Positions 1 through 21,829 are shown, counted from the first letter of the stretch. The stretch: DNA of 32,000 nucleotides from Candidatus Electrothrix yaqonensis (GCA_047651235.1 CP178758.1:3570001-3602000), one strand, 5' to 3'. Translations and numbers: made by a program. Notes: generated by a model not told the origin, from the letters alone.

Positions 1-1036
1 TGTAATGCCAAACCTACGAGCTATCATAGAGGATGGCGAGATCAATCTGAGGCCAGATGTGTATATACGTGACTACATCGGTGATGATGGTGATGCGCAT
101 AGTAGCAGTATTTCGGCTAGCCCTGATGTCATACTCGTTCCTGCAACGGTTGGTGATCCCAATGCAGCCTTTGGTCACGGTAGCGGCACAGAGAACGACA
201 ATACTCTGGGCCATGAGGCTACAGGTGGACAGGATAATTATATCTATGTCCGATGCCTTAACCGTGGTGGTGGAGACGGCACTAACACGACAGCTCGTAT
301 ATTCTGGTCACCGCCTTCAACACTGGTTACTCCCGATCTGTGGACACCAGTCGGCAACGTAACATTGTCAAATGTACCGATTGGGGAAATCCTTACCGTG
401 AGTGACGCCCTAACATGGCCAAACGCTGATATCCCAGCGCCCGGACACTATTGCTTTGTTGCGATCCTTGATCAGGCTCAGGACCCAGGTCCTACACCTG
501 TCGATTTCCTCGATTGGGACAATTTCCGATCATTTATCCGGGAAAACAATAATGTGACATGGCGTAACTTTAATGTGGTACCTAGCTCACCACCACCAGG
601 CAATAAAATGATACGTCAGCCATTCCTGATGGCCGGTGCTTTCGACAAAGCACGCAAAATGCGTCTAGAAGTCACAATGCGTCTGCCCAAAGATGCTAAG
701 GTGCAATTGAGAATACCTGAACACCTTGCTGAATGTATCCAACGCATACGCTCACCATTTACGAAGCAGGAGCGCAAAAAACGCACTGTTCTTGTGCCCC
801 TCAATCCACATGGGCGTACGAGATTTTGCGATGTCATTTTACCTGCAAAAGGAAGGTATGAGTTGGAGCTTCTGGTGAGCATTCCTAAAGAAGCAAGAAA
901 CCACTCCTACCTTGGTTGGGCCGCTCAGTTTGAGGAAGAGCAAGAGCTTGGTCGCGTTACCTGGCAATTTGCTTCAGAAGATGTGTTTGAAAAACGTGAT
1001 GCCCACCTTAAACGGTTTATGAAACGTAAATGCTGA
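1..1036 (+). CDS. Hypothetical protein, probably 5'-truncated by the window edge
   Basis: ORF 5..1036 stays open back to nt 2. The stretch DVYIRDYIGDDGD..SPDVILV..NYIYVRCLNRG resembles, from memory, the beta-rich extension that follows some subtilase domains. That is unverified, and no catalytic motif is visible. An attC-like site follows immediately. Confidence 0.55.
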   Translation, partial: VMPNLRAIIEDGEINLRPDVYIRDYIGDDGDAHSSSISASPDVILVPATVGDPNAAFGHGSGTENDNTLGHEATGGQDNYIYVRCLNRGGGDGTNTTARIFWSPPSTLVTPDLWTPVGNVTLSNVPIGEILTVSDALTWPNADIPAPGHYCFVAILDQAQDPGPTPVDFLDWDNFRSFIRENNNVTWRNFNVVPSSPPPGNKMIRQPFLMAGAFDKARKMRLEVTMRLPKDAKVQLRIPEHLAECIQRIRSPFTKQERKKRTVLVPLNPHGRTRFCDVILPAKGRYELELLVSIPKEARNHSYLGWAAQFEEEQELGRVTWQFASEDVFEKRDAHLKRFMKRKC

Positions 1037-1037
1037 A

Positions 1038-1126
1038 AAGCTAACAAGGCAAATGCACTCGGACGCCAAAAAGCGCCGCTCCTTCGTCGCTCTGCTTTTT
1101 GGCGTCGGTGATTTGCGGCGTTCCAA
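1038..1126 (+). other. attC-like recombination site
   Basis: It starts 2 nt after the TGA at 1034-1036, with ends AAGCTAAC (to 1045) and GTTCCAA (1120-1126). The arms GCAAATGCACTCGGACGCCAAAAAGC and GCTTTTTGGCGTCGGTGATTTGC pair, leaving three unpaired bases on the 5' arm. Confidence 0.65.
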
Positions 1127-1157
1127 AGGCGCGCCCCTTCGGGCCACGCCTTTGGAA
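1121..1157 (+). repeat. GC-rich 37-bp hairpin repeat, copy 1 of 3
   Basis: TTCCAAAGGCG-cgccccttcgggcca-CGCCTTTGGAA. The same sequence lies at 9273-9309, and an inverted copy lies at 12651-12685. All three directly abut the GTT end of an attC-like site. Confidence 0.8.
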
Positions 1158-1299
1158 TGCCGAGTTGACCGTACCGGCCCAACATTTGATTCCTGCGGCG
1201 CTGCGCGCCTTCGGAACCAAACGTTGGACTCGAAATTTTCCCGCAATAATCAACCGCAAGCGGCCATTATACCAGGAAAATTCCGGTCAACTCGGCATT
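1156..1299 (+). mobile_element. 144-bp MITE-like element with perfect 16-bp terminal inverted repeats, copy A
   Basis: AATGCCGAGTTGACCG ... CGGTCAACTCGGCATT. It is identical to copy C (18601-18744) and differs from copy B (9308-9451) by one base. Two internal hairpins are present (CCAACATTTGATTCC..GGAACCAAACGTTGG and ATAAT-caa-CCGCaaGCGG-cc-ATTAT). There is no coding capacity; the track ORFs across it are repeat artefacts. Confidence 0.75.
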
Positions 1300-1368
1300 G
1301 GGCGACGTGAAAAAGCACAGCATAGGAAGCTAAAGCTATCCACCTTAAAGTTATGGCAATATTAAAAT

Positions 1369-2439
1369 ATGAGAACTGCAATGCTGGAAAATCCCAAAGT
1401 ACTTGATTTTGAGTCAGTACAAAATAGAAATAAAATTGAACCATTAGCATCTCATCGGGTTGTCCAATTCATACGAGACGGCGCCACAATTTGTTTAGGT
1501 GATTCATTGAAAATGTATAAACATTGGCTACCACCTACAGTCATTATTTCTGATGGTCCATACGGTCTTGGTTCATATGAAGGAGACCCACATACACCTG
1601 AAAACCTTGCAGATTTTTACGCTGCTCACCTATCCGAATGGAGCAAATACTCCAAACCGAATACTACTTTATGGTTTTGGAACTCCGAACTTGGTTGGGC
1701 AAATGTGCATAATTCAATCCAACAAAACGGTTGGGAATTTCGAAATTGTCACATCTGGAATAAGGGTATTGGCCATATAGCCGGGAACGCAAATACTAAA
1801 ACTTTAAGAAAATTTCCGGTTATTACAGAAGTATGCGTACAGTATGTAAGGAAAGTTGAATTCTCTGTTAATGATCAATTTCTATCCATTAAGGATTGGC
1901 TTCGCCATGAGTGGCAAAGAACAGGTTTGCCTTTTTGTAAAACAAATGAAGCTTGTGGAGTGAAAAATGCTGCTACGAGGAAATATTTTACAAAATGTCA
2001 TTTATGGTATTTTCCTCCACCCCAGGCTTTTGAAATGATACAAAAATACGCAAATAAAAATGGAATCCCAGAAGGAAGGCCATATTTTTCAGTTGATGGT
2101 AAAAAGCCACTTACAAAAAAACAATGGGAGAATATGAGAGCAAAATTCTATTGTAAAGCTGGTATTACGAATGTTTGGTCAGAGCCTGCGGTAAGAGGAG
2201 GGGAAAGGCTTAAAAATAAAAGTAAATGTTTGCATATGAATCAAAAACCATTGAAATTATTGGAATTGATTATTGAATCTTCATCTGATAAAAATGATGT
2301 GATTTGGGAGCCTTTCGGCGGTCTCTGTTCAGCGACAATAGCTGCCCATAAATTAAGTCGTCGTGCATTCGCAGCAGAGATTAATAGTGATTACTTTGAT
2401 ATTTCTACTAAACGGTTGGACAATTATGACATCTTCTGA
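1369..2439 (+). CDS. DNA methyltransferase, N6-adenine/N4-cytosine type, beta-class motif order
   Basis: A motif IV-like VIISDGPYG lies N-terminal. C-terminal are NQKPLKLLELII and VIWEPFGGLCSATIAA (the SAM-binding FxGxG region). The gene overlaps the next one by 14 nt. Confidence 0.8.
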   Translation: MRTAMLENPKVLDFESVQNRNKIEPLASHRVVQFIRDGATICLGDSLKMYKHWLPPTVIISDGPYGLGSYEGDPHTPENLADFYAAHLSEWSKYSKPNTTLWFWNSELGWANVHNSIQQNGWEFRNCHIWNKGIGHIAGNANTKTLRKFPVITEVCVQYVRKVEFSVNDQFLSIKDWLRHEWQRTGLPFCKTNEACGVKNAATRKYFTKCHLWYFPPPQAFEMIQKYANKNGIPEGRPYFSVDGKKPLTKKQWENMRAKFYCKAGITNVWSEPAVRGGERLKNKSKCLHMNQKPLKLLELIIESSSDKNDVIWEPFGGLCSATIAAHKLSRRAFAAEINSDYFDISTKRLDNYDIF

Positions 2440-3346
2440 ACCAATAAGAGAAGTTCCTGCAACAGATTGGGATCATTATAAATTATTTAAAAGAGTTAAA
2501 GAGGCGATTTATAGTCTTCCTTTATATTTTCGAACCGAGACCAATATAGAAGGCATTTCTGCCACGGATATTTTTACATTGAACAGTGCTCTCGGTGCGA
2601 CAATTGAATCTCAGGTAGTTCAAACATTGAATAATATGAGGGCTCTTTGGGACCCGGATGAAGAATATGTAATGTACTCTTTCGTTCGTCAGTCTCAAAC
2701 GTTTCCTGACGTACTTTTAAAGAAAATTGGGGACTCATCTGATGTCGCTGAAATAATACTTGGTATAGAATTGAAAGGTTGGTATCTGCTAGCAAAAGAA
2801 GCAGAACCAAGTTTCCGTTTTCAAGTAACTCCTTCTGCTTGTGCGGTGCATGATTTAATAGTTGTTGTTCCATGGGCTTTAAATAACGTCATTTCTGGCT
2901 CTCCCAAAGTTTTCGTACCATACGTGGAATTTTCACGATATGCAGCTGCATATCGCAACTATCATTGGCAGTACCTACGACAAGCTAAATCAAACACAAA
3001 CATAAATATTCCCACAGATATTACACCCTATCCCAAAAAAAGTGATCCCATATCTGACAAACCTGTTTCTGACGGAGGCGGTAATTTTGGACGCTTTGCT
3101 CGAACCGGTCTGATGGATTCTTATTTACATAAGGCAAAAGAGGAACATATATGTGGCATTTCAGCTGAACATTGGTTAACATTTTTTAAAGTTTTCCAAG
3201 ATCAGAAAAGTATAACTGAGGTTCGTGATCAAATCAAAAAAATCAAAGCAAAAGTCCTTGCAAAAGTAGAAGGGGATGAAAATACTACCTTAATTAATAT
3301 TCAAGAAATATTACTATATATTGATAAAATAGTTGATGAACTTTGA
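2426..3346 (+). CDS. Putative type II restriction endonuclease (PD-(D/E)xK-like)
   Basis: The ATG at 2426 overlaps the methyltransferase stop (ATGACATCTTCTGA). The motif FPDVLL...ILGIELKGW fits PD...ExK. The track's GTG start at 2363 would lie inside the methyltransferase. Confidence 0.6.
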   Translation: MTSSEPIREVPATDWDHYKLFKRVKEAIYSLPLYFRTETNIEGISATDIFTLNSALGATIESQVVQTLNNMRALWDPDEEYVMYSFVRQSQTFPDVLLKKIGDSSDVAEIILGIELKGWYLLAKEAEPSFRFQVTPSACAVHDLIVVVPWALNNVISGSPKVFVPYVEFSRYAAAYRNYHWQYLRQAKSNTNINIPTDITPYPKKSDPISDKPVSDGGGNFGRFARTGLMDSYLHKAKEEHICGISAEHWLTFFKVFQDQKSITEVRDQIKKIKAKVLAKVEGDENTTLINIQEILLYIDKIVDEL

Positions 3347-3408
3347 TGCTCCACTTCGTTCCGCATTTTGAAAACCGGTTAGCTTGTCGTTGTGTTTAAG
3401 GATAATGT

Positions 3409-4656
3409 ATGTTCGATCAGTCTTTTACATATAAAACAATCTCATCGTTAATAACAAAGTCTGATTTTGCTAAAAATCCTGACTTAATAGATAAAAATTA
3501 TAAGTCTCAGATTGTAAACAGTTGCATTGAAAAATCATTAATTGGCTTTACAAGTAGTATTGATGTTGCAGTAAACCAGTTTAAAGGAAAACCAGTTTAC
3601 AAAGTTAAGTTGTTACAGGATGAGTTGTTATTAAGAAAAGCTTCAGAAAATATTAAAAGAATAACAAGTGTAAAACAACAGGATCGAGATAGTATAGTTA
3701 ATAATTTAATATGTTTTTTACGTGAAGGTGTCTCTTACAATATTTATAAATTGGATATCAAGTCATTTTACGAGTCAATAGATACTGTAGAGATGTTAAA
3801 AAATATGAAAAATGATATAACAATTTCTAAACCTACTATTCGCGTAATTGAAACTATATTAAAAAATATTGATGGTTCTGGTTTGAAGGGATTGCCAAGA
3901 GGATTACAGTTAAGTGCGACATTATCAGAGTTAATAATGCGGAAATTTGATAATTACTGCCAAAAACATAATGATATATTTTTTTTCTCTCGCTATGTTG
4001 ACGACATAATAATAATTACAAGTGCATTAGAGGAAGAGTCAGAATTTATAAACAACTTAGAAACTAAGATTTATAGGGGGTTAAAATTCAATTCAAAAAA
4101 AACTGATATTATTAATATTCCAGTTGTTAATAAAAATGACGCTGAAAAAGAATTTGAAAAATTTAAATATCTTGGCTATGAATTTACAATAAAAAATCCT
4201 TCCAAAAAAAATATTAGAGAAAAATACAGGGACGTATTTATTGACATATCTTCAAAAAAAGTTAAAAAAATTAAAACAAGAATAATTCGCGCTTTTCTTT
4301 CTTTTTGCGAAAACAAAGATTATGATTTACTTAAAGACAGAATTAAATTGATCACAGGAAATTATAGCATAATTGATAGGAAATCTGGAGTTAAGAGAAA
4401 AGCCGGAATCTTCTATAGTTATAATCATGTTTCAATCGAAACCTCTTCATCTATTAAAGATTTAGATATATTTCTGAAAAAAGCCCTATTGTCAAGAAAC
4501 AATAAAATCTCAAATGAAGTTAACAATATTTTATCATTAAGTGAAAGACGTAGACTTTTAAAAATTTCATTTAGTAATGGATTTAAAAGGAAAGTATTCT
4601 TTCATTTTCCCCAACAACGATTAGCTAAAATAATGCAATGTTGGGCCTATGAATAA
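3409..4656 (+). CDS. Reverse transcriptase, stand-alone UG/Abi-type (UG3-like by layout)
   Basis: RT motifs KLDIKSFYESI, GLPRGLQLSATLSELIM, FSRYVDDIIIIT, GLKFNSKKT and FKYLGYEF. An AAGGA ribosome-binding site lies 6 nt upstream of the ATG. No retron VTG motif and no group II maturase or X domain is seen. Confidence 0.85.
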   Translation: MFDQSFTYKTISSLITKSDFAKNPDLIDKNYKSQIVNSCIEKSLIGFTSSIDVAVNQFKGKPVYKVKLLQDELLLRKASENIKRITSVKQQDRDSIVNNLICFLREGVSYNIYKLDIKSFYESIDTVEMLKNMKNDITISKPTIRVIETILKNIDGSGLKGLPRGLQLSATLSELIMRKFDNYCQKHNDIFFFSRYVDDIIIITSALEEESEFINNLETKIYRGLKFNSKKTDIINIPVVNKNDAEKEFEKFKYLGYEFTIKNPSKKNIREKYRDVFIDISSKKVKKIKTRIIRAFLSFCENKDYDLLKDRIKLITGNYSIIDRKSGVKRKAGIFYSYNHVSIETSSSIKDLDIFLKKALLSRNNKISNEVNNILSLSERRRLLKISFSNGFKRKVFFHFPQQRLAKIMQCWAYE

Positions 4657-6625
4657 ACAAAATAAAGTAAATAAAAAAGATTACTATAGAATTTTATTGT
4701 CAGAAACTATTCCATCTGAGGTTCCATTTATTTTTTCAAACGATGGATTTTACAAAAATTGTATATTATATGAAAAAAGTAACTATCACCCGATTGAGCT
4801 TTTTCAGATCATTGTTATCAGTGAGCAAGAAGATAAAAGCACTATACCTCTAACTTACAAAATTAGAAAAGACGCCTTTTCATTGAGATCTTTATCACTT
4901 ATGCATCCTTATTCTCAATGGAAATATATTGATTTTTACAGTAATTACAGTGGCATTATTTGTTTTCATTGTTCCAGAAGTAAAGCATCCCTCCGTTCAC
5001 CACAAAAAATTGGCAGCTCTTTTTATGTAAAAAATGAAAATGAAAATATAAAAAAATATAAAATAGATTCAATTGATACTGAAGATGAAGATAAAACAAT
5101 AAAGCATCCTTCATCCTATTTTGCTTATCGGGGTGTTAACAGATTGCACAAGTTTTTTGATTCTAGTAAATACTTGAAGCTTGAAAAAAAGTACTCTTCA
5201 ATGTGGATGATTGATATTGCAAAGTGTTTTGATAGTATTTATACACACACTGTTTCATGGGCAGTAAAATAAAAATATTTTGCTAAAAACAGTATTAATA
5301 TCAAGTCGTCATTTGGACAAAAATTTGATACATTAATGCAACGAAGCAATGATAACGAAACAAATGGTATTATAATAGGTCCAGAAACAAGTAGAATATT
5401 TGCAGAAATTATATTTCAAGATGTAGATATAAAGACAATAGCTGCCTTAGAGAGTAAGCACAACATTCAATTTGATAAAGAATATACTTTTCGGAGATAT
5501 GTTGATGATACATTTATTTTTTCAGTAGACGAAAAGACTACCGTTTTAGTTGTTGAAGAATTAATAGATCAGTTATCCAAATACAATCTTCATATAAACG
5601 AAAATAAAATCGAAAAGCATAGTAGACCTTTTTATACTAAGCAATCAAGAATAATTCGGGCGATTAACTCAGAAATCAACATATTTTTTAAAAAGTTCAC
5701 AAAAAAAGAAATAATTGATAATATAAAATTGATTTTCCCAGAACCAGTATACAGAGTCAACAATCTCATAAACAGTTTTATCAACACAATTAAATCTATC
5801 TGTTCAGAAGCCGGGGGTGATTATAGTTTAGTTTCGGGATATATAATTTCGTCCTTATCTAATAGAATTATCAGGTTGATTGATATTGATCCTGCTCAGA
5901 TAAAAGATAAAAAAGAATATGGTATAAAATATACAAATGCATTTATTACTATATTAGAAACGATATATTTTTTTTATAGTGTTAAACCATCGGTTAATTC
6001 ATCGTATTCTCTTGGCAAATCTGTGGTTGTAAGCTATCGATTTTTTGAAAAGGAGTTTCCTGAGTATATGCCTACAATAAAGCAGAAAATATTTGAATTA
6101 ACAATTGATTTATTAAAACAAAATCAATTTTCAATAAAAACTCATAGAAAAAATCTGGTTCCTCTTGAAAAAATAAATATTATCCTTGCAATAAGCGAAA
6201 TGGGTGAGGATTATCTTTTATCAAATGAATTCATGAAAAAACTATTTAGTTTTAATAGCTTTTCCTTAAATTATTTTGAATTGATGTCTTGCTTATTCTA
6301 TATTAAAGATAATCAAGAATACAACGAGTTAAAAGAAAATATCGAATCAAATATTGAACAGAAGTTAAACGACTTGTCTGATATTGGAAGAAAGTCAGAG
6401 GTCGTTTATATATTTCTCGATAGTTTATCATGTCCATATTTTGATTTTGATTTTAAAGAGAACCTGCTAACCAGATTTTACAGTGAAAACAATAAAAGTA
6501 TACCTGACTTAAATGAGTTAAGAAATATTATAAATTTTATGGAAGATAATGAATGGTTCATTACTTGGAAAAATATTGATCTACTAAACATGTTAGAAAA
6601 AAAAGAATTAAAGACCACTTATTAA
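4649..6625 (+). pseudogene. Second reverse transcriptase (UG8/AbiA-like) interrupted by one in-frame TAA at 5270-5272
   Basis: ORFs 4649..5272 and 5336..6625 share a frame (687 nt apart), and the 21 codons between them have no stop. The upstream piece ends in RT motif 2 (MIDIAKCFDSIYTHTVSWAVK). After the stop the frame reads KYFAKNS..FGQKFDTLMQRSNDNETNGIIIGPETSRIFAEII, then FRRYVDDTFIFS and NLHINENK, followed by a roughly 330-aa helical tail. The start overlaps the RT1 stop (ATGAATAA). Confidence 0.75.
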
Positions 6626-6636
6626 GTATTTCATTT

Positions 6637-6811
6637 TGGGATAAGAGCTCAATATTTGCTCTACACTTTAGATTTTGTATAATTTTAGCAAGACTTAAAA
6701 TGTCATACTCTTTTCTGATAGTTATTTAAACGACGGTTTGGATAACACAAGAAACGAGAGCGGTTTTCCGCACACACATTATGCAATGAGGGCTCTTATC
6801 CCATTTTTTTT
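6637..6811 (+). ncRNA. Candidate structured ncRNA downstream of the RT pair
   Basis: A 12-bp closing stem (TGGGATAAGAGC at 6637-6648, GCTCTTATCCCA at 6792-6803) encloses about 143 nt containing small hairpins, for example GCGG-tttt-CCGC. A run of T8 (6804-6811) follows directly. There is no ORF, and the region sits between the RT2 stop and the next attC-like site. Confidence 0.45.
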
Positions 6812-6833
6812 AAAGCAATCACTATGAAACAAA

Positions 6834-6900
6834 ACACAACATTTGGTTGCAGGGGATTGCATCCGCTGCGCTCCTGCAACCCCTGAACCATGCGTTATGT
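6834..6900 (+). other. attC-like recombination site
   Basis: ACACAAC ... GTTATGT, where the reverse complement of the 3' end matches the 5' end at 6 of 7 positions. The arms TGGTTGCAGGGGATTGCA and TGCAACCCCTGAACCA pair with two bulged bases (G and A). The loop TCCGCTGCGCTCC is identical to the loop of the 7640-7711 site. Confidence 0.75.
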
Positions 6901-6915
6901 GTAAGAGAGAACAAT

Positions 6916-7605
6916 GTGATAAAGAAAATTTGGAAAGATCCAGTATTTAGCAAGCTTATAGCTGCTGCTTTGATTTGGGTATTAGGAATCTTATATCTTG
7001 AGCTGTCTCCTAAATTCCAAAACATTAATTGGTTGACAAAGATTAGTCTGCTTTTGATTCCAACATGTTTTCTTTTGTTATGGGGTGGTATATCGAGATT
7101 AATAAGAAAAATTAAAAAATCAAAAGTTCTTGTTTACCTAAGCACTGGTGGAACTTGTAGAGATCCAATTGCTAAGGTAATTACAGAACAACTTCTTAAT
7201 GAAAAAGGGCTTAACCTTAAATTAGAAATTAAAGCTATGGCAGTGAGTGACAGTTCTGATTTGAAAGTTTCATATGGAGCTAAATATGCCATCAAGTCAG
7301 TATATGGTAAAGATTTACTGTCTAATCATAAGTGTAGACAAATCACAAAGGATATATTTGAAAACGCAGATTTGATTATAGTAATGTCGCAAGATGTTCT
7401 CAAAATGCTTGAGTTGAAATTTCCTCAAAGAAACGAGAGAGTTTATTTATTCAAAGAGTTTTTTGGGCTTAGTGGAGACGTTACAAATCCATGGCCGGAT
7501 GGACAGGATGAAGAAACTTTGAAAAGGTATCTTAATTGCGTAAATGAAATAAAGAGTGTTTTGGTATCTTATTTCGATAAATTGGTTAATGCATTAGCAG
7601 TTTAG
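6916..7605 (+). CDS. Membrane-anchored LMW protein-tyrosine-phosphatase/ArsC-fold protein lacking canonical catalytic residues
   Basis: Two N-terminal hydrophobic helices are followed by VLVYLSTGGTCRDP, which aligns with VCxGNxCRSP, and by DLIIVMSQD and DVTNPW, which align with DLILTM and DPY. I propose the GTG start at 6916, preceded by AGAGAG, because the track's TTG start at 6847 lies inside the attC-like site. Confidence 0.65.
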   Translation: MIKKIWKDPVFSKLIAAALIWVLGILYLELSPKFQNINWLTKISLLLIPTCFLLLWGGISRLIRKIKKSKVLVYLSTGGTCRDPIAKVITEQLLNEKGLNLKLEIKAMAVSDSSDLKVSYGAKYAIKSVYGKDLLSNHKCRQITKDIFENADLIIVMSQDVLKMLELKFPQRNERVYLFKEFFGLSGDVTNPWPDGQDEETLKRYLNCVNEIKSVLVSYFDKLVNALAV

Positions 7606-7639
7606 TATTGATTCGAATACTGCTGAATAAAAAAAGAAC

Positions 7640-7711
7640 ACATAACAAATCACTGCACTGGATTTTTATTCCGCTGCGCTCCATAAAAACCAGTGAGTTC
7701 AGTCGTTATAC
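7640..7711 (+). other. attC-like recombination site
   Basis: ACATAAC ... GTTATAC. The arms CACTGGATTTTTAT and ATAAAAACCAGTG pair with one bulged A. The loop is TCCGCTGCGCTCC. Confidence 0.75.
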
Positions 7712-7729
7712 ATAAAAATTAAATAAAAA

Positions 7730-8275
7730 ATGAGTATTGGAACATTTATTTCATCAGCAATAGATAATTTAAACAAAAATAGATATGATGTCGCTTTAGC
7801 TCTTGTTTGCTCTGCTGTAGACGCGACAGCCTCAACGCAATATCCCGAAATCAAAGAAAATAATAAAAGATATAAAAAATTTTTGAAAAATAATATGCGT
7901 ATTATTACAACATATGGATTTCCGGGAATAACAGCCAGTGGAATCTCTATAAAATGTCATAATATCCCAGATATAAAAGCAGATTCCGAAGGACATACAG
8001 ACATTGAAAACATACTTTATCATATCATTCGGTGTTCTTTAATACATCAATGCGAAATCGATCAACGGATAGATTTCGTTCCTTATACTCACATAGGTGA
8101 TTTTGAAGATAAATTTAGGATTCCTGATAGTCTTGTGTTCGGCCTGCTTTTGTCAGTTGTTTTAGCAGAATGCAATAAACAAGAAAAACTCGATAAAGAT
8201 TACGTCTTAAATTTAAATGAAAAGTCTTTGAGTATAAATAAAATTTGGGGTAATTTTAAAAATTTTAATATATAA
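7730..8275 (+). CDS. Hypothetical protein (single-gene cassette)
   Basis: A 181-aa ORF bounded by attC-like sites on both sides, with no motif I recognise. Confidence 0.6.
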   Translation: MSIGTFISSAIDNLNKNRYDVALALVCSAVDATASTQYPEIKENNKRYKKFLKNNMRIITTYGFPGITASGISIKCHNIPDIKADSEGHTDIENILYHIIRCSLIHQCEIDQRIDFVPYTHIGDFEDKFRIPDSLVFGLLLSVVLAECNKQEKLDKDYVLNLNEKSLSINKIWGNFKNFNI

Positions 8276-8277
8276 AT

Positions 8278-8356
8278 GTATAACCAGTCATTTCACCTGA
8301 CCGTTACCCGCGCCGAAAACGGCGCGTGCACCGGCAGGTGAATTCCGATGTTAGCA
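8278..8356 (+). other. attC-like recombination site
   Basis: GTATAAC starts 3 nt after the TAA stop, and the site ends in GTTAGCA. The arms TTCACCTGACCG and CCGGCAGGTGAA pair imperfectly. The apical hairpin is GCGCCG-aaaa-CGGCGC. Confidence 0.7.
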
Positions 8357-8381
8357 TTCATAAAAAAAAGGAAACCGTCAA

Positions 8382-9143
8382 ATGGCAGGTTTTGTTTTAG
8401 TATGGGGTACTAGAATTAAAGAAGAACCTATTGGTTCAGTAGCGATTGATTGCCCGGCCTGTGGTGAAAGAGTTATTGCAGATACTTTTAGAGTCCTTAA
8501 AGCATCACATCTATATTTCATCAGAGGCAAATACAAAGAAGTCCAAAAGTATGTTAAGTGCCGTTTGTGCGCGGTCCCTTCCGAATTGCCTGAAAGGGCT
8601 ATACCAAAATCATCACCAAGTTCTAATATCATAACGCCATCAGCTAATTTTATAAAAGAGTCAAATCCAGAACTAATAAATACATCAACACCATCTTCTG
8701 ACGAAGATTTAAATATAACCGATGGAATTTCAAGACATGTGTTGTCATTATTTCAAGGGATATTTCAGGAGATAAATAAGCAAAAGTCATCAAGCAAAGC
8801 AGCCGGGAATGCAGAAGGTTTAATATTAATCGTATTGATGGCAGGGCTCATACTCTCTATGCTTTTATACGAAAAATTTAATAACCCTCAAATATTTTTA
8901 ACCACACTTTGGAGTTTAACGATCATTTTGGTGATCTTCTTTTATAAATTTCAATTTATCCTTATGTTCAAAGCTGCACACAATTATTTAAATCTTCATA
9001 TTCAACGATATCTCGAATTTAAAAAAATGACATTCCAAGATCTATTAGAGATGTCAACAGGGCTTAGAGGAGAATTTAAAATAGTAGCGAAATATTTATC
9101 TTGGGCAAAAACTAAGATTGAGCTTGTGAGGTACTCAGACTGA
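8382..9143 (+). CDS. Hypothetical zinc-ribbon plus transmembrane protein (single-gene cassette)
   Basis: An AAGGAAA ribosome-binding site lies 8 nt upstream. The N-terminal CPACG...CRLC is a four-Cys ribbon, and the C-terminal half has at least two hydrophobic helices (GLILIVLMAGLILSMLL, TLWSLTIILVIFFY). Confidence 0.65.
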   Translation: MAGFVLVWGTRIKEEPIGSVAIDCPACGERVIADTFRVLKASHLYFIRGKYKEVQKYVKCRLCAVPSELPERAIPKSSPSSNIITPSANFIKESNPELINTSTPSSDEDLNITDGISRHVLSLFQGIFQEINKQKSSSKAAGNAEGLILIVLMAGLILSMLLYEKFNNPQIFLTTLWSLTIILVIFFYKFQFILMFKAAHNYLNLHIQRYLEFKKMTFQDLLEMSTGLRGEFKIVAKYLSWAKTKIELVRYSD

Positions 9144-9152
9144 GAGCTAAAA

Positions 9153-9278
9153 TGCTAACCCAGCGCTCCACTGGACCGCAAGGGGCGGCTTTTCCAAAGT
9201 CTGTAGCGACTTTTAAAAATGGTGCTTTCTGCTGCCTTCTCTGGAAACCCTTGCGGCCCGTGAGCTTCACCGTTCCAA
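9153..9278 (+). other. attC-like recombination site (long form)
   Basis: TGCTAAC ... GTTCCAA, the same end sequences as the 1038-1126 site. The arms GCTCCACTGGACCGCAAGGG and CCCTTGCGGCCCGTGAGC pair with bulges. Confidence 0.65.
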
Positions 9279-9309
9279 AGGCGCGCCCCTTCGGGCCACG
9301 CCTTTGGAA
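9273..9309 (+). repeat. GC-rich 37-bp hairpin repeat, copy 2 of 3
   Basis: Identical to 1121-1157. The 180 bp at 9272-9451 equal 1120-1299 except for one T-to-C change. Confidence 0.8.
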
Positions 9310-9451
9310 TGCCGAGTTGACCGTACCGGCCCAACATTTGATTCCTGCGGCGCTGCGCGCCTTCGGAACCAAACGTTGGACTCGAAATTTTCCCGCAATA
9401 ACCAACCGCAAGCGGCCATTATACCAGGAAAATTCCGGTCAACTCGGCATT
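9308..9451 (+). mobile_element. 144-bp MITE-like element, copy B
   Basis: It has the same 16-bp terminal inverted repeats as copy A. The single difference from copies A and C is aataaCcaacc versus aataaTcaacc, within hairpin 2. Confidence 0.75.
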
Positions 9452-9490
9452 AGCCTCTTGAAAACAACTTTAATTTAAAATGGGTAAAAA

Positions 9491-12400
9491 ATGATTTCTA
9501 TCAATAGGATGAAAAAATTGTCAGTTATTATTTTGCTTGCAGAGCTGTCAAGTTTATTTGCCATACAGTCGCTGGCGCATGCAGAAGTCTTCCGAGCGAA
9601 GTTTAAAGCAGGCTCAGAGTATTTGGTTATAGAGATACTTGATGATGACTTAGCTCATTTTGAACTCTCAGCTATAGGAGATGGCCCGTCAACTGATGAG
9701 TCGCTTTATACTTCTCCAATGGTGCTGAAAACTGACTACAAAGGTGCCGCAAATGTATCTCATAATGACAACGTTATAGAAACCAGTGAGATGCGTCTTG
9801 AGATTGACAAGAGCAATCTGTGTGTCAAACTGATTGATAAAACAAAGGGAAATGCTCGTCTGACAACTGTTTGTCCGGTCGATCTGACTCAAGGGTTGAA
9901 AGGAATAAATATCGAACCGGGTCAAATACAGAATATATACGGTCTCGGCCAGAAATTTAAGCAGTTAGGTTCATCAGACGGCGACTGGATTAAGTTGGGA
10001 GTACGCGAGGGGAAGGATAATTGGGGGAACGGGTTCGAGGGTTTCCAGAATGCGGCGGTAGGTAATGTACAAATCCCGGTGTATTATGCTGTCGGCCCGG
10101 ACAATATCAACTATGCTCTCTTTATGGATAATGTCTACTGGCAAAGGTGGGATTTTGAAAAGAACTGGTGGGAAGCACGTATGTATGGAGACCAGTTGCG
10201 TTTTTACTTTATGACCGGCCAAGACTTACCTGATCTGAGATCGGACTTTATGGAACTGACAGGGAAACCGCCAGTTCCTTCTCGGCAATCCTTCGGTATG
10301 TGGGTATCTGAATTCGGCTATGACAATTGGGAACAGATTGATATTCTAAAAAAAGGCTTGAGAGAAGACAGATTTCCTTTAGACGGTTTTGTCCTTGATT
10401 TAAACTGGTTCGGCGGCATAAGTCCGAAGACCAACATGGGACGTCTCAATTGGGATCAGAATCAGGATGAATTGGTGCAAAACAATGCGTACTCTTTTCC
10501 CAACCCAAGTGAAAAAATTAAAGAATACGCTGAAGACAATATTCGAATCGCGGCAATTGAAGAATCCTATTTAGCCAAGACAGAGCCTCCTCTCAATACC
10601 TTCAAGGATATCCCTCAGGATTTCATGAGTTATCTGCGAAGTGACAACAAATGTGATCCGGCCAATCAGGTACCGGCCGAGACAGAAGGTTTTTGGGGTA
10701 AAGGACGAATGTTCGACTGGTCGGACCCGGTACTCGGTAAATGGATTCACAATAACCGTCGTTTTCCTGAGCTAGCAAAAAGAGGAATCAATACTCATTG
10801 GACTGATCTGGGCGAACCCGAGACCTTTAATCCTTCCGCCTGTTATGAAGGAGTGGAGACAACTGCTGCTGGCAAAAAAAGCGGACATGCAGATATTCAT
10901 AATATATATAATCTGCTTTGGAATAAATCTATTTGGGACGGTTACGTTGACAAGCAGGGCCAGGAGGATGAACTGGGTATAACCAATCCACGGCCTTTAA
11001 TTCTGACCCGTTCAGGGGCTGCCGGAACGCAGCGATACGGTGCAGCTATGTGGTCCGGGGATATTGCCTCTAACTTGGACTCCCTTGCTACACATTCAAA
11101 CGCTCAAATGCATATGTCTTTTTCCGGTATTGACTATTACGGTGCAGATATCGGAGGCTTTCGCCGAGAAGTACTGCCGGGTAACAGCAAAAACGAGCCC
11201 TTTGATATAAGCTATCAGGATGAAATGTATACCCAGTGGTTTGCCAACGGAAGCTGGTTCGATATCCCGGTCCGTCCTCATACTGATAATGAGTTTGGGA
11301 CAAACCGTGATAGCTGTAAAGACGATTTCGGTCACAGAAAATCGCCCTGTTATGAAACAGCTCCTAATCTTGTCGGCGATACTGTTAGCAATTTAGCCAA
11401 TATCCGCCAGCGTTACGAGCTGATCCCCTACTATTACTCCCTTGCTTACCGGGCTTACTTGCAAGGTGAACCTGTCATCCCGCCTCCAGTGCTCTATTAC
11501 CAAAATGACGAGAAATTAAGAGAGGCTGGCCACGAAAAGATGATCGGCAGAGATATTCTGGTCGGAATCGTCGCCAAGCATGGTGAGTATGATCGCAATG
11601 TATATCTGCCCACGGGCAAATGGGTGAACTACCACTCGAATGAATGGGTTGACAGCTCAGGAGAAGAAATAAAGGATGTGCCTGTTTATCGACAAGGAAT
11701 TTTTCGGCTTCCAACCTTTGTACATGCCGGAGCTATACTTCCCCAGATGTTTGTTGATAAAAATACTCAAGATGCCTTTGGACATCAATTTAAAGGAACC
11801 TCAGAACATGACGAACTGATTGTTCGCGTTTACGCAGATGAGACTCCATCGACGTTCACACTGTACGAGGATGATGGATTAACTCTAAATTATACGCAAA
11901 CCGGACGACCATTCTATCATTACAGAACAACTGTTCTTGAGCAACAACAGAATAAGAATAATGACACGGTAAAAGTGACTATCGGTCCGGCTGTTAACAG
12001 AAAGGGTGACAAGGAAGTGGCAGAATCGTTTACCGGAGCTGTTGATAGTCGAGCAAACATTGTCAAGTTGATCGTTAATAATGCAGAGGCAACAGCGGTC
12101 AGTCTTAACGGCACACCATTGACTGAGTATGAGTTTCAAAAAGATTTCGATGAAGCTGAAAGCGGCTGGCACAACACCGGTGATAATCTTATCCTGGCGA
12201 AATCTATAAAAATGGACGTCAAGAATATCACAAAAGTTTTTTCTTTTCAGCTGGAAGATGTCCCGGCAAAAACGTCAGTTAACTTTGTTTGCGATAACGG
12301 CTTTACAACTCCGGGTGAGAGTATCTATGTTGCAGGCAGTATTGCTGCCTTAGGTAATTGGGATCCTGGCATGGCGGTTAAGCTCGAACCGACCATTTAT

Positions 12401-12619
12401 GACGAATACATCACTCGAACAGATAAAAGTCTTCCCGGCCCTACGAAACCAATCTGGACAGCTGTAATCAGCAATCTATCGCCGAATACAGGCTTTGAAT
12501 GGAAATGCATACGGCGACAGGAAAACGACCCGAATCAAGTTGAGTGGCAATCCGGCGAAAACAACGAGAAAACCACTGTTGCTCATGGCTATTCCGGAAA
12601 GAGTTACGGTACGTTTTGA
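9491..12619 (+). CDS. Secreted glycoside hydrolase family 31 enzyme with C-terminal CBM20 starch-binding module
   Basis: A signal-peptide-like N-terminus (MKKLSVIILLAELSSLFAIQSLAHA). GH31-type HWTDLGEPE and MWSGDIASNLDSL. The CBM20-like tail reads GESIYVAGSIAALGNWDP...FEWKCIRRQ...VEWQSGENN. The start may instead be the ATG at 9509. Confidence 0.8.
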   Translation: MISINRMKKLSVIILLAELSSLFAIQSLAHAEVFRAKFKAGSEYLVIEILDDDLAHFELSAIGDGPSTDESLYTSPMVLKTDYKGAANVSHNDNVIETSEMRLEIDKSNLCVKLIDKTKGNARLTTVCPVDLTQGLKGINIEPGQIQNIYGLGQKFKQLGSSDGDWIKLGVREGKDNWGNGFEGFQNAAVGNVQIPVYYAVGPDNINYALFMDNVYWQRWDFEKNWWEARMYGDQLRFYFMTGQDLPDLRSDFMELTGKPPVPSRQSFGMWVSEFGYDNWEQIDILKKGLREDRFPLDGFVLDLNWFGGISPKTNMGRLNWDQNQDELVQNNAYSFPNPSEKIKEYAEDNIRIAAIEESYLAKTEPPLNTFKDIPQDFMSYLRSDNKCDPANQVPAETEGFWGKGRMFDWSDPVLGKWIHNNRRFPELAKRGINTHWTDLGEPETFNPSACYEGVETTAAGKKSGHADIHNIYNLLWNKSIWDGYVDKQGQEDELGITNPRPLILTRSGAAGTQRYGAAMWSGDIASNLDSLATHSNAQMHMSFSGIDYYGADIGGFRREVLPGNSKNEPFDISYQDEMYTQWFANGSWFDIPVRPHTDNEFGTNRDSCKDDFGHRKSPCYETAPNLVGDTVSNLANIRQRYELIPYYYSLAYRAYLQGEPVIPPPVLYYQNDEKLREAGHEKMIGRDILVGIVAKHGEYDRNVYLPTGKWVNYHSNEWVDSSGEEIKDVPVYRQGIFRLPTFVHAGAILPQMFVDKNTQDAFGHQFKGTSEHDELIVRVYADETPSTFTLYEDDGLTLNYTQTGRPFYHYRTTVLEQQQNKNNDTVKVTIGPAVNRKGDKEVAESFTGAVDSRANIVKLIVNNAEATAVSLNGTPLTEYEFQKDFDEAESGWHNTGDNLILAKSIKMDVKNITKVFSFQLEDVPAKTSVNFVCDNGFTTPGESIYVAGSIAALGNWDPGMAVKLEPTIYDEYITRTDKSLPGPTKPIWTAVISNLSPNTGFEWKCIRRQENDPNQVEWQSGENNEKTTVAHGYSGKSYGTF

Positions 12620-12644
12620 TCTTTTTCACTCTGCCGGTAAAAAG

Positions 12645-12685
12645 GGGCATTTCAAAGGCGTGGCCCGAAGGGGCGCGCCTTTGAA
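12645..12685 (-). repeat. GC-rich hairpin repeat, copy 3 of 3 (inverted), followed by AATGCC on the minus strand
   Basis: The minus strand reads TTTCAAAGGCGCGCCCCTTCGGGCCACGCCTTTGAAATGCC, against TTCCAAAGGCG...CGCCTTTGGAATGCC at copies 1 and 2. It abuts the GTT end of the minus-strand attC-like site. Confidence 0.75.
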
Positions 12686-12803
12686 ACTAGGCGCTGCACC
12701 CGACCCGCGAGCACGCGCGTTTTTTGAAGTAGATTCATGCTCCCGTTCCGCTTCAGGCCATCGCGGTGATGCCGGGGCGGGGCGGGTGAGCTTGTTGTTA
12801 TCG
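12681..12803 (-). other. attC-like recombination site on the minus strand
   Basis: The minus strand reads CGATAAC ... GTTTCAA. The arms GCTCACCCGCCCCGC and GCGGGTCGGGTGCAGC pair with one bulged G and one mismatch. The TAA stop of the minus ORF lies inside the ..TAAC end. Confidence 0.65.
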
Positions 12804-13237: not shown

Positions 13238-16200
13238 ATGATACAAAAACTGTCTTTTTCAGCGTCCACCGAATTCTTGAATAACTTCAAACAAGTTGAG
13301 GTTCTTGATCAAAGAAAAAAATTCGAAGCAGTTCAAACTAACAATGGCCATACAATTTTTATTGGAATCGGAACAGATGACCAACTCTATGTGATTTACG
13401 AGCAGTCAGGTAAGAAGCATGGCTGGGTACAGATCCCTGTGACAAACAACTTGATGGGCAACGTCAAAAATTTTGCCGCATCACAAAACACCAAGGACGG
13501 TAATATTGATATAGCTGTGGTTATGACCGATCCATCAGACAACAACATGCTTTACCTGTCACTTGACCACCACTTTGACAATACGGACTGGATCACTCCT
13601 AATCTGAACTGGATAACAATCACAGATGATCGCTCCGAGCCGGAAAATCGAAACTTGGTAATTTCCGACGTGCATCTATCCCAGATGAAATCTGGTAACG
13701 AAACAATCATTGTCGATACGGTGACCACTAACAATCTGATTGAACGATATTGGATCAACAAGAGGGGGGCACCCTACTGGAACAAGCACAATCTGCAATT
13801 CGATCTGAGTGCCGGAACGGCTGATCACAGCCGTGTAGGTCGCAAATCCGGTGAGTTGGTCAACGGTATCTACACCATGGGTCGGGTAGGCCCTGCCCTG
13901 CAGTTTGTCTACACCCCGGTCTATAACGCCTTCAACCCGTCAATCGCGCCAAACCCCACCAATTTCAATTTCAATGCCACCAAGCTGACAGCGACCAATT
14001 CGGACTATGACACCTGCCCTGCCTTGTCAGGCGAGCAGGATGCCACCGACCTGTTTCTGGCAGGTGGCGACACGCTCTATTACCTAGCCGCAAAAGAACA
14101 AAACCAGATGGCGACGCCGGTGGAAATTCTAACAAGTGACCTGCTTTCCGATGTCAGGGATTTCCGCGTTTCCGTTAACTCCGAGAAGGTTGTTATCTGG
14201 GTGCTTAATGGACATGACCAGCTTTTCTATCTGTCCTGTCCGAAAAACGGGATTCATGACAAATCAAACTGGTCCATACCGCTACCTTTGCAAAGCAGCG
14301 TATCGGAAATGTCCCAATACATTTCCAATCAGGGTGGGGGCATTACCGTTTTTGCCAATGTTGGAAACGGCAAGGTTCTCAAGGGAATGCAGGACCCGGC
14401 TTCTTCCCGCTGGGTATTTGCTCAAATCGAACTTCCTGCACTGAAGCATGACACCAAGCCCATCAAGCAACTTTCCTTCACCACCCACATCCGGGTCCAA
14501 GATGAAAATAACAATCCGGCCCCCGCTGCCGATGTCGTTCTGAAGCCCGATGCATGCGTCAATGTTTACATCAACAACGCCTTCTATGCCTTGAGCGGGG
14601 ACTCACTGACGGTTAAGACCGATGCGACCGGTTCAGTCACCATTGTTGAATGGGTCGACACGATGCAAGGCACCAATTTCAACATTCACACAGGAGACCC
14701 GTCACAGGCGAAGGGACTAAATCCCCTGTCGAAGCCACTCGGAAAATTATCGCAGCTGAGTACTGCGGACGGTCTCAGTAACGCGCAGATCACAGCGGGT
14801 GACGGTACCAAATCCGCCCTGCTGAATACTGGGGTCACCGACGATCAAAAAAAGGCCCTAGCAGGCGTGATCAAGGACTTGAACATCGCGCACAATTCCA
14901 TGTCGGAATCCAAGGTAACAGTGGGCGCGAACGCTGGCTTTACCATCAATGCGGTTGCCACCCACAAATCCTCCTCGCCGGTCGATTACATCGAAACTTG
15001 GTGGGGAGATCTTGTGCAGGCCGTTAAGCACTTTGGCGAATATACGATTGAATTGATCAAGGATGCCTCCAAGGAAGCTTGGCACTTCGTGGTTAAAGTC
15101 GCTGGCAAGGTTTACGGCTTTCTGGTGGACACTGTCGAGAAGGTTGCCGGGGCACTTGAATCGATCTGGAACAAAATCGTTGAGGGTTGGGACAAATTCA
15201 TCGAATGGGTGAAGTTCATCTTTGAGTGGAAGGACATGGTCCACACTAAGGATGTGTTCAAACAGACCGTGCTGATCTTCTTCAACAAGATGGCCGAGGA
15301 TATCCAGAAGGCGCGGGTCGCCATGGATACAACGATAGACAATGGGGAAAGGGCGATCATGGCTTGGGCCAATGAAGACCCATCCTCAAGACCAAGCCTT
15401 GCCAGTTTGGACACACCCACCAATCAGTTGGCCAAAGGCAAGAAGGAACCGAAAGGGTCGAATTCCGCGCCAGCACAATTCATCCAGTCGCACTTCAAGA
15501 ATAATGTCAGCCGGTCAACAGCGACATTAGCGCCGCCCACAGTGGGGGTTGATCCAGACTGGTCAGGACTGACTGACATGTCGGACATCGTAAAGCGGGC
15601 TGAAGATGACATCACCGTGCTGCGTGATCACATCAAAAGCCTGTTTGTCCAGGCAGCCACTCAGGTAAATCCGGACATGCAAGCCATCGTGAAAAAAGTG
15701 ATTGCTGACATTACAATCCTTGCAATGGACCTTTTTAAAGGTGCAGCGGACAAGGTGCTTGATTTCCTGACCCTCCTGATCGAGGAAATCGTAGCACTGT
15801 TGGATACGCCACTCTACATCCCGATTCTGTCCGACATTTTGAAAGATGATTTTGGGATGGAACTCCCGTCGCTGTTGGAAATTCTCTGCTACGTTGCCGC
15901 CATTCCGACAACAATTGTCTACAAGATCGTCAATGGTAAAGCCCCGTTCTCGACCAATGATACGCTTTACAAAAACCTGACCAAGGCAAAAAGCTTTGCT
16001 GAGTTGCAGAAGCTTTACAATACCTCGGATGATCTCATCAAACTGGACGAGTCGGCACAGGCGGTGCTGTTTGAAACCACCTATTTTGCATCCGGTGTTT
16101 GCACCATCATTTACGGTTTTCTGGCCGTGATTGACGAGGAGACCGATGGCGGTGCCTCCAGTGCGCTCTCTACCCCCAAGACAATCCTGTCTGTCTTGTC

Positions 16201-16690: not shown

Positions 16691-16720
16691 TCTAACTCGT
16701 ATATTTTGAAGGTAAATGAA

Positions 16721-18600: not shown

Positions 18601-18744
18601 AATGCCGAGTTGACCGTACCGGCCCAACATTTGATTCCTGCGGCGCTGCGCGCCTTCGGAACCAAACGTTGGACTCGAAATTTTCCCGCAATAATCAACC
18701 GCAAGCGGCCATTATACCAGGAAAATTCCGGTCAACTCGGCATT
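18601..18744 (+). mobile_element. 144-bp MITE-like element, copy C (without the GC-rich hairpin)
   Basis: Identical to copy A. Its left flank is cttaacttaat rather than the hairpin, which shows the 144-bp unit is separable from the hairpin. Confidence 0.75.
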
Positions 18745-19329: not shown

Positions 19330-19598
19330 TTATGCCGCTGTTCCGTCAGGACGGCTTTGAATCCCGTAGTTATTTAATTCCCGTTCCTTATAGATAAATA
19401 CCACCAAGACGTACCGTCCGCTGTCTGTCTGGCCGTAGGCATCATACAGGTCTTCCCCCTGCACATGTCCTTTTGCTCCTCTGCGAATACGGGAAGCGTT
19501 GCAGAAAATCTCTTCAACTTCTTCCGGCGACAGGTGATGTTTCCATGCGAGTTTTTCAATAATCTGATCAAGCCAGACAATATATCTTCAATATACAT
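19330..19598 (-). pseudogene. BrnT/DUF497-like toxin gene, frameshifted
   Basis: The minus-strand ATG at 19598 opens MYIEDI. After a 1-nt frame change the sequence reads VWLDQIIEKLAWKHHLSPEEVEEIF..RRGAKGHVQGEDLYDAYGQTDSGRYVLVVFIYKE. This matches the family pattern I recall (IIWLExIVEKLxxKHxV...GEDxYxAxGQTxxGRYLxVxF). The C-terminus is degraded. Confidence 0.45.
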
Positions 19599-19807: not shown

Positions 19808-20108
19808 CTACTTTTTGCGCTCCAGTCACCATATTGCGGGCAAATTCTGCGGAAGTAACATCCTTGCCTCCGGATTTTTCCTCCTTGAAATCATTTGTTA
19901 ATTTATTTATATCAACAACCCGTTTTTCCCCATTTCTCCAGTGAATATCGAATTCCTTTCCACCGACCCGGACAAAATAATTGCTGGCCCCGTCATCATT
20001 CACTCTCTGCTTCAACCCGAAATGCAGAGTTTCAGGCGGTTGCTGAACAGATATTTTTTCAAATTCGCCTGCAAATAAACAGAGCATAATTTCGTCTGAG
20101 AATCGCAT
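19788..20108 (-). CDS. Hypothetical protein (106 aa), last gene of the four-gene operon
   Basis: Its start overlaps the upstream stop (TAATG). Its 3' end runs into the aspS remnant, so the C-terminus may not be native. Confidence 0.5.
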
Positions 20109-21811: not shown

Positions 21812-21829
21812 GAGCTGTCTGTTCAGTTC

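Follow-up and report, generated by a model that had tools for sequence, protein, structure and literature searches.

Six attC sites and the cassettes that they bound

We analysed a 32,000-nucleotide (nt) stretch of Candidatus Electrothrix yaqonensis (GCA_047651235.1 CP178758.1:3570001-3602000; hereafter, the window), for which a reading made from the sequence alone (the sequence-only reading) had proposed an integron-style array of gene cassettes separated by attC recombination sites. The location is chromosomal, since the RsmB encoded in the window is 100% identical to the RsmB of Candidatus Electrothrix sp. YB6, which lies on a 3.74-Mb contig; YB6 is a cable bacterium in clonal culture whose genome has been closed (PMC12093952). 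The six imperfect palindromes that had been noticed are all present, and all are attC sites on the + strand, each starting with an R'' box of the form xxxxAAC and ending with an R' box of the form GTTxxxx. These are attC A (1039-1126; R'' AGCTAAC, R' GTTCCAA), which has non-canonical spacing and three bulges, all in its 5' arm; attC C (6834-6900; R'' ACACAAC, R' GTTATGT); attC D (7640-7711; R'' ACATAAC, R' GTTATAC); attC E (8278-8356; R'' GTATAAC, R' GTTAGCA); attC F (9153-9278; R'' TGCTAAC, R' GTTCCAA), which has a long, variable terminal structure; and attC G (12681-12803; R'' TTGAAAC, R' GTTATCG), the last site of the array. The identical 13-nt loop that had been reported for two of the sites, TCCGCTGCGCTCC, is common to C (6861-6873) and D (7670-7682). 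With lengths of 67, 72, 79, 88, 123 and 126 nt, the sites fall within the attC range of ~57-141 nt, and they are heterogeneous, only C and D being alike. AAC and GTT are present in 6/6 sites, and the extended consensus RYYYAAC/GTTRRRY fits C, D and E well.

The sites bound six cassettes on the + strand. The first enters from the left edge and ends at 1120, and consists of a gene ending at 1036 plus attC A. It is followed by a fused double cassette of ~5.8 kb (1121-6894) that carries a restriction-modification system and a DRT3 system, and by cassettes for a low-molecular-weight phosphatase (6895-7705), a 181-amino-acid (aa) protein (7706-8350), a 253-aa protein (8351-9272) and a GH31-CBM20 glycoside hydrolase (9273-12797). 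All of the cassette open reading frames (ORFs) lie on the + strand, co-oriented with the array. The sequence-only reading had placed every palindrome at or just after a stop codon; this is correct for A, D, E, F and G, which begin 3-62 nt after a stop, and incorrect for C, which is preceded by a structured RNA-like region of ~170 nt rather than directly by a stop codon. The description of the bounded ORFs as AT-rich orphans holds only in part. An AT-rich block (25-35% GC) does extend from about 1.5 to 9.0 kb in a window with a GC background of ~50%, but several of the ORFs have family matches, and the GH31 gene has a GC content of 41-49%.

Bulge spacing, folding and covariation

An attC site is defined as an imperfect hairpin that has an unpaired central spacer, an L box and extrahelical bases confined to the R''-L'' arm (PMC5027507). 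In the window, the bulged bases are found on one arm only, as had been noted, and this is the 5' arm of the + strand. C, D, E and F have unpaired bases at positions +9 and +16 after AAC, the base at +16 being A, and the same bulge spacing is found in the attCs of aadB, aadA2 and blaVIM-2. attC G has one bulge (+9) plus a 1x1 mismatch. Scored with a geometry descriptor, C and D reach 13/13, E and F 12/13, and G 11/13 on the + strand; four sites at 12/13 or better compares with 0.04 expected from shuffles. The layout is that of class 1 attCs: R'' ending in AAC, 6 nt, 2 bp, a bulge, 6 bp, a bulged A, a stem-loop, 7 nt and R' beginning with GTT. The bottom-strand bulges of attC F are the canonical G and T; C, D and E differ from class 1 attCs in that their first bottom-strand bulge is C or A, not G.

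Because the six attCs are on the + strand, it is the bottom (-) strand that would be expected to fold and to be recombined by an integron integrase. The sequence-only reading had proposed folding the bottom strands and looking for extrahelical bases; as single-stranded DNA, A to F fold with z scores of -2.6 to -6.5 relative to shuffles (attC A bottom strand, -3.74; attC E, -6.5), with a slight advantage of the - strand over the + strand at each of these sites. Across the six sites, 93.8% of the 15 model pairs form, with six pairs changed on both sides, as compared to 23-43% of pairs in slid controls. Compensatory changes are also seen between sites in the window and relatives elsewhere: attC A is 87% identical over 83 nt to an attC on contig L101, with three compensatory pair changes, and between attC D and its relatives there is one such change, T-A to C-G, beside the loop.

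Covariance models trained outside the window

Two proxy covariance models were built from attCs that lie outside the window. The first, R1, derives from ten different class 1 attCs of plasmid arrays, which were located via the IntI1 protein (100% identity matches in thousands of plasmids). Its pairing followed the textbook scheme: an R box of 7 bp and a spacer of 6 nt, then 2 bp, a bulge and 6 bp, and finally a spacer of 7 nt before R'. When both strands of the window were searched with filters off, the five best R1 matches were all on the + strand, at E (36.1 bits), D (30.0 bits), A (17.3 bits), C (11.0 bits) and F (10.2 bits). The E-values were 3.7e-7 for attC E and 0.026 for attC A, with 3/6 sites below 0.03. 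In a control of 129 kb of plasmid DNA, every true attC scored at least 38 bits and one spurious match scored 11.2 bits.

The second model, R2, was trained on 96 environmental attCs that R1 had found, at 15-53 bits, in 50 of the loci from the loop scan described below. R2 recovered attC D at 50.2 bits (E 2.4e-10), attC A at 38.1 bits (E 2.2e-7), attC E at 34.3 bits (E 1.9e-6), attC C at 33.3 bits (E 3.3e-6), attC G at 22.0 bits (E 0.002) and attC F at 18.4 bits (E 0.016), all on the + strand, and G on that strand only. Hence, 6/6 sites were detected at E <= 0.016, and nothing else in the window fell below E 0.05. The covariance-model search that had been suggested as a check, run here with the proxy models R1 and R2, therefore did not place the sites below threshold (R2, 6/6).

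A different explanation for the palindromes is that they are transcription terminators or repetitive extragenic palindromic (REP)-like repeats with no relation to integrons, which would account for the position of the hairpins after stop codons. However, no terminator-like U-tract follows any of the sites, as the sequence-only reading had observed; terminator calls numbered 4 in the window, as compared to 8.4 expected, and 0 of these were at attC hairpins. The AAC/GTT ends, the fixed bulges on one side, the model scores, and the cassette chain rule and linkage to IntI elsewhere that are described below are likewise at odds with terminators or REP-like repeats, and we regard this explanation as scarcely credible. 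Rfam had no match in the window at gathering thresholds.

Cassette junctions and a relic site

In integrons, the six bases past the crossover point G|TT of an R' box are already part of the following cassette, whose own R'' is complementary to them. Among 42 control junctions, 27 matched this rule at 7/7 and 7 more at 6/7 (34/42 at 6/7 or better). In the window, as in class 1 integrons, the same rule links R' to R'': the junctions from C to D (GTTATGT/ACATAAC), from D to E (GTTATAC/GTATAAC) and from E to F (GTTAGCA/TGCTAAC) are complementary at 7/7, and the junction from F to G (GTTCCAA/TTGAAAC) at 6/7. C, D, E, F and G are separated by 0.6-3.4 kb on one strand. The junction from A to C fails the rule (3/7), which is explained by a relic boundary, X, between them.

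X (3341-3395, + strand) was missed by the sequence-only reading, whose list of sites was to this extent incomplete. What remains of it is a stem-loop at the apex (loop TCCACTTCGTTCC), a 3' arm similar to that of D-type attCs, and an R' box, GTTGTGT, at 3389-3395; the 5' arm has been lost. The R' box is complementary to R'' of attC C at 7/7, and lies 14 nt before the ATG of the gene for Drt3a, in the 62-nt gap between that gene and the restriction gene. By our own estimate, the chance of finding GTTGTGT in that gap is about 0.004. A full attC at 3336-3402 was considered and rejected, since the X region does not fold (z +0.96) and is matched by neither R1 nor R2. In view of its R' box and of a 3' arm like that of D, we kept X as a relic half-site, and read it as a decayed attC whose loss of the 5' arm appears to have fused two cassettes. 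On this reading, attC decay has welded two cassettes into one larger unit. The leaders between the G of R' and the start codon span 20-27 nt in three single-gene cassettes, 14 nt after X, and about 220-250 nt where a hairpin and a repeat, described below, intervene.

All six sites have the same orientation

The sequence-only reading had assigned the site at 12681-12803 to the opposite strand. This is not the case; all six attCs share the + orientation. If G were an inverted attC, it could mark an inversion or a second, converging array, and there are features that would fit: a 42-nt hairpin next to G is inverted relative to its copies after A and F, G read on the - strand has a more typical R'' (CGATAAC), and G has a slightly more stable fold on the + strand than on the - strand (-25.1 versus -23.7 kcal/mol). 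However, the R2 match is confined to the + strand, and both the only true bulge (+9) and the conserved A at +16 are in the 5' arm of that strand. Moreover, the L' motif of G, GTGAGCT, is the same as that of F, and its R'' pairs with R' of F at 6/7. G is also co-linear with a + strand attC in a metagenome-assembled genome (MAG) of Desulfocapsa (L016 3279-3403), including a stretch of 24/24 nt, and it comes after the stop codon of the + strand GH31 gene. An inverted G is thus highly unlikely. We conclude that the inverted element near G is the 42-nt hairpin, at 12646-12687, and not the attC.

Relatives of the sites in other genomes

More sites of this kind exist elsewhere, so that the proposal survives the refuting test that the sequence-only reading had set. 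The loop TCCGCTGCGCTCC is also found in the blaVIM-2 and dfrA12 attCs, and a scan of GTDB genomes with an attC pattern that includes this 13-nt loop yielded at least 120 loci, as compared to about 27 expected by chance. These loci span Desulfobacterota, Gammaproteobacteria, anammox Planctomycetes, Nitrospirota and others, and approximately 16 of them have strong IntI homologues (44-58% identical to IntI1) in a fetched stretch of at most 8 kb. A 28-nt core of the D-type site was found on at least 120 metagenome contigs, and attC D is 89-97% identical to attCs on MAG and metagenome contigs; it is the attC alone that is shared, the cargo being unrelated. On one of these contigs, L101, a D-like and an A-like attC lie about 530 nt apart. 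An attC type with the blaVIM-2/dfrA12 loop is widespread in sediment metagenomes, across MAGs of many phyla.

Two D-type arrays, on L241 and L253, lie beside a full-length integron integrase in the canonical divergent layout. This type of integrase belongs to a large Desulfobacterota clade annotated as 'integron integrase'. The array in the window resembles these chromosomal integrons of Desulfobacterota, which have attCs about 90-97% identical to D, short cassettes, unrelated cargo and a chromosomal context, and differs from them in that the integrase is visible there and not in the window. A homology search with the IntI of a related array gave no Electrothrix-labelled match among the best 120.

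The bins of the D-type contigs include Campylobacterota, Caldisericaceae, Pirellulales, Thermotogota, Bacillota, a Bathyarchaeum MAG and others. Near-identical D-type attCs are present on short contigs (L081, L083, L086, L091, L101, L109, L114 and L123) from bins of ~8 phyla, one of the bins being archaeal. The likeliest explanation for D-type attCs across phyla is that they are mis-binned fragments of cassette arrays rather than sequences of the true hosts; the spread of the D type is in this respect a practical warning on the mis-binning of cassette arrays.

Probable distal part of a chromosomal cassette array

Taken together, the two models trained on outside sites, the bulge spacing, the chain rule, the covariation and the IntI-linked relatives support the proposal of an integron-type attC cassette array, as opposed to terminators. 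We conclude that positions 1-12803 very probably represent the distal (3') part of a chromosomal integron cassette array of Candidatus Electrothrix sp. YB6, which places such an array in a cable bacterium; a literature search found no paper pairing Electrothrix with an integron. By analogy with established integron biology, the cassettes would have been inserted, and would be excisable, by IntI-mediated recombination at G|TT of R'. An integrase, attI and cassette promoter (Pc), if any, would be expected upstream of nt 1, intI being on the - strand, and cassettes so far from Pc would depend on their own promoters.

Several points weigh against this conclusion. As the sequence-only reading had stated, no intI, attI or Pc is in view: tblastn with IntI1 detected no integrase-like coding sequence in the 32-kb window (E > 5), Pfam scans of the window's large ORFs found no integrase, and neither attI nor Pc is visible in the window. 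The attCs were identified from sequence and predicted folding. Apart from AAC/GTT, A, F and G match RYYYAAC/GTTRRRY poorly in their R boxes; the model scores of F and G are modest; and the fold of attC G is not significant by itself (z about -1). The training loci of R2 were picked through the loop motif, a bias towards C and D, yet A, E, F and G lack this motif and were still recovered. Lastly, the gap of 5.7 kb between A and C exceeds the 4-kb clustering distance of IntegronFinder (PMC4889954), such that IntegronFinder at its default would split A from the C-G cluster.

One possibility is a complete sedentary chromosomal integron, of which the array would be the far end; its intI, attI and Pc, whether intact or decayed, would then lie to the left of nt 1. 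We give this an even chance. The left edge of the window falls within a cassette, and every attC is directed away from that edge, which argues that the array continues upstream; related D-type arrays have IntI in exactly that position; and the array is in the chromosome, near the housekeeping genes rsmB and rmuC. On the other hand, the attCs are heterogeneous, unlike those of classic Vibrio-type sedentary integrons, and the YB6 genome paper mentions no integron (PMC12093952). Alternatively, the array could be a cluster of attC sites without an integrase (CALIN), produced by loss of intI, rearrangement or insertion at secondary sites, and mobilised only in trans. Such clusters are abundant in bacterial genomes, and 95% of them have no nearby intI pseudogene (PMC4889954). 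Like a CALIN, the array has at least two attCs on one strand and no integrase nearby in the DNA at hand, there being no intI in 32 kb. It also shows signs of decay, among them X as a half-site, the interruption of drt3b by a nonsense codon, and hairpins that may sequester R' or R'' of three sites. However, the window holds only the distal end of the array, so that the absence of intI here says little, and the CALIN label demands that there be no intI on the whole element, whereas this array runs off the edge. A CALIN is a realistic possibility, if a little short of even. We consider a complete integron and a CALIN to be about equally likely.

In either case, the chromosomal array of this cable bacterium differs from class 1 integrons in having no antibiotic-resistance cargo and, within the window, no intI1, attI1 or 3'-conserved segment. 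What is unusual here is limited to the hairpin and repeat module at the starts of cassettes, and the fused defence cassette. The array is otherwise an ordinary member of a well-known system, and knowledge of the integron mechanism is unchanged by it.

Cargo of the cassettes

The last gene of the upstream cassette (2-1036, + strand) runs off the start of the window, and its stop codon is 3 nt before attC A. Its product resembles the C-terminal part of proteins in which an S8 peptidase domain is common; it has 225 homologues, the best at 65% identity, and many of them have PF00082. A look-up of the ORF itself gave no record. The idea that these homologues are recurrent cassette genes was not supported by their contexts.

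The fused cassette begins with genes for a type II N6/N4 methyltransferase (1369-2439, + strand; PF01555, E 1.2e-19; PADLOC MTase_II, 3.7e-26) and a type II restriction enzyme (2426-3346, + strand; PADLOC REase_II, 2.2e-7). Past X are the genes for Drt3a (3409-4656, + strand; NCBIfam, 2e-119) and Drt3b (4649-6625, + strand; NCBIfam, 8.9e-71 and 7.3e-113 on the two halves), with PADLOC in agreement for both. Drt3b is broken by an in-frame TAA at 5270-5272 into parts of 207 and 429 aa. The same TAA is present in an independent short-read Logan assembly of the same culture, of which contig L001 is 100% identical to the window over 1270-6922; the codon is either the mark of a pseudogene or a recoding site. 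Downstream of drt3b, a structured RNA-like region (6637-6812, + strand) has a 14-bp closing stem followed by T8, and an RNA fold of -56.3 kcal/mol (z -6.97); it had no match in Rfam. The non-coding RNA (ncRNA) of DRT3 systems is encoded downstream of drt3b (bioRxiv 10.64898/2026.05.04.722794), and the region at 6637-6812, which has this position, is a candidate for, and probably encodes, the DRT3 ncRNA.

Defence genes have already been documented as integron cargo (bioRxiv 10.1101/2024.07.02.601719; PMC12614218). The cassette described here resembles those phage-defence cassettes in that type II restriction-modification and DRT3 lie between attCs, and adds an environmental example of both being stored as integron cargo. 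It differs in that two multi-gene systems seem to have been fused by attC decay, and in the nonsense codon of Drt3b.

The remaining cassettes each carry a single gene on the + strand. The first encodes a membrane-anchored protein similar to low-molecular-weight phosphotyrosine phosphatases (6916-7605; Pfam LMWPc, E 4e-14). The next two encode proteins with no assigned function: a 181-aa protein (7730-8275), which had no match to Pfam, NCBIfam or PADLOC in our scans and has a precomputed PF27329 tag, and a 253-aa protein (8382-9143), which matched no family in Pfam, NCBIfam or PADLOC. The last encodes a secreted GH31 glycoside hydrolase with a CBM20 starch-binding domain (9491-12619; PF01055, 6.3e-55; PF00686, 4.3e-17).

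A hairpin and a repeat at cassette starts

A GC-rich hairpin of 42 nt is present in three copies next to attCs. The first nt of copy 1 (1120-1161, + strand) is the G of R' of attC A, and that of copy 2 (9272-9313, + strand) is the G of R' of attC F. In copy 3 (12646-12687, - strand), the last 7 nt of the + strand, TTGAAAC, are R'' of attC G; the inverted repeats I1 and I2 that reveal this copy are 95% complementary, and it has one compensatory pair change. When the hairpin was searched against Rfam at E <= 1, the only match was a weak one to the Pseudomonas small RNA P35, at 30.8 bits as compared to a gathering score of 70. We rejected this sub-threshold match as generic hairpin similarity.

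The first two hairpins run into a 144-nt repeat similar to miniature inverted-repeat transposable elements (MITEs), with perfect 16-bp terminal inverted repeats (AATGCCGAGTTGACCG). Copy 1 of this MITE-like repeat is at 1156-1299 (+ strand); copy 2 is at 9308-9451 (+ strand), where it follows hairpin copy 2 in a joint module (9272-9451); and copy 3 is at 18601-18744 (+ strand), outside the array, where it has no hairpin and ends 12 nt before a 108-aa ORF. The three copies differ by 1 nt, have the same orientation, and each end 12-69 nt upstream of a + strand ORF. The repeat is predicted to fold into a very stable three-way junction (z -6 on the + strand and -8.5 on the - strand), and the 197-nt stretch of hairpin plus repeat has a folding energy of -116 kcal/mol on the - strand and -89 kcal/mol on the + strand. 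Exact-pattern scans of GTDB genomes and JGI metagenomes yielded no copy of the MITE-like repeat, and sigma-70 consensus promoters were not matched in either the hairpin or the repeat. An AAC...GTT hairpin within the repeat (1177-1229, and its counterparts in the other copies) was considered as an attC and rejected, on the grounds that bulges and a central spacer are lacking, that its R1 score is only 8.8 bits (E = 4), and that it has no R2 match and fails the chain rule.

At A and F the hairpin begins at the crossover G|TT, and at G, where it is inverted, it ends at R''; once circular, the GH31 cassette would hence have its R box extended by 42 bp. One idea is that the hairpin, with or without the 144-nt repeat, is a functional add-on to attC. 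It might sequester R' or R'', thereby locking large cassettes against excision. Alternatively, it might be a non-autonomous element, small in size, whose target is the attC crossover, in the manner of IS1111-attC elements and group IIC-attC introns. The module of hairpin and MITE-like repeat is like those elements in position only, abutting the crossover at A and F. It is unlike them in that it spans 144-185 nt, has no ORF and shows no intron or insertion sequence features, and in that one copy of the repeat lies away from any attC. We consider a functional add-on of either kind doubtful.

In one of the control class 1 integrons (L015 3198-4547), the gene for a group II intron reverse transcriptase follows a yjjG-like cassette gene. 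No attC was detected between the two genes, and the intron, a well-known kind of attC-targeting element that is considered here for comparison, probably interrupts the attC of that cassette.

Culture assemblies and surroundings of the array

The Logan contigs of the YB6 culture are short and break at repeats. Contig ends are found at 1270, 6922 (the end of L001) and 7679 (the start of L257), each of which is 30 nt from a feature of the array: 1270 from the end of the MITE-like repeat, 6922 from the crossover of C and 7679 from the GTTA of D. Since an assembly graph with k=31 breaks at sequences that occur in multiple contexts, these ends suggest that the culture has more copies, or alternative junctions, of these sites. 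They would imply more than one context within the culture both for the start of the phosphatase cassette and for the end of attC D. A Logan contig carrying the phosphatase cassette was not found. Of the 3,323 genes of YB6, 801 have been reported to be strain-specific (PMC12093952).

Just past the last attC, positions 13238-18421 hold two large co-oriented ORFs, of 1150 and 571 aa, neither of which had a match in Pfam, NCBIfam or PADLOC. A 74-aa ORF at 19374-19598 (- strand) is 49% identical (tblastx) to an ORF at 1038-1232 of L104, a 1.7-kb contig with an attC of the motif type; no attC was detected near the 74-aa ORF in the window. Further along, at 20108-24916 (- strand), a DUF6603 protein (1028 aa, E 2e-142) is encoded beside a 567-aa protein without a family match, and this pair is placed between the array region and rsmB.

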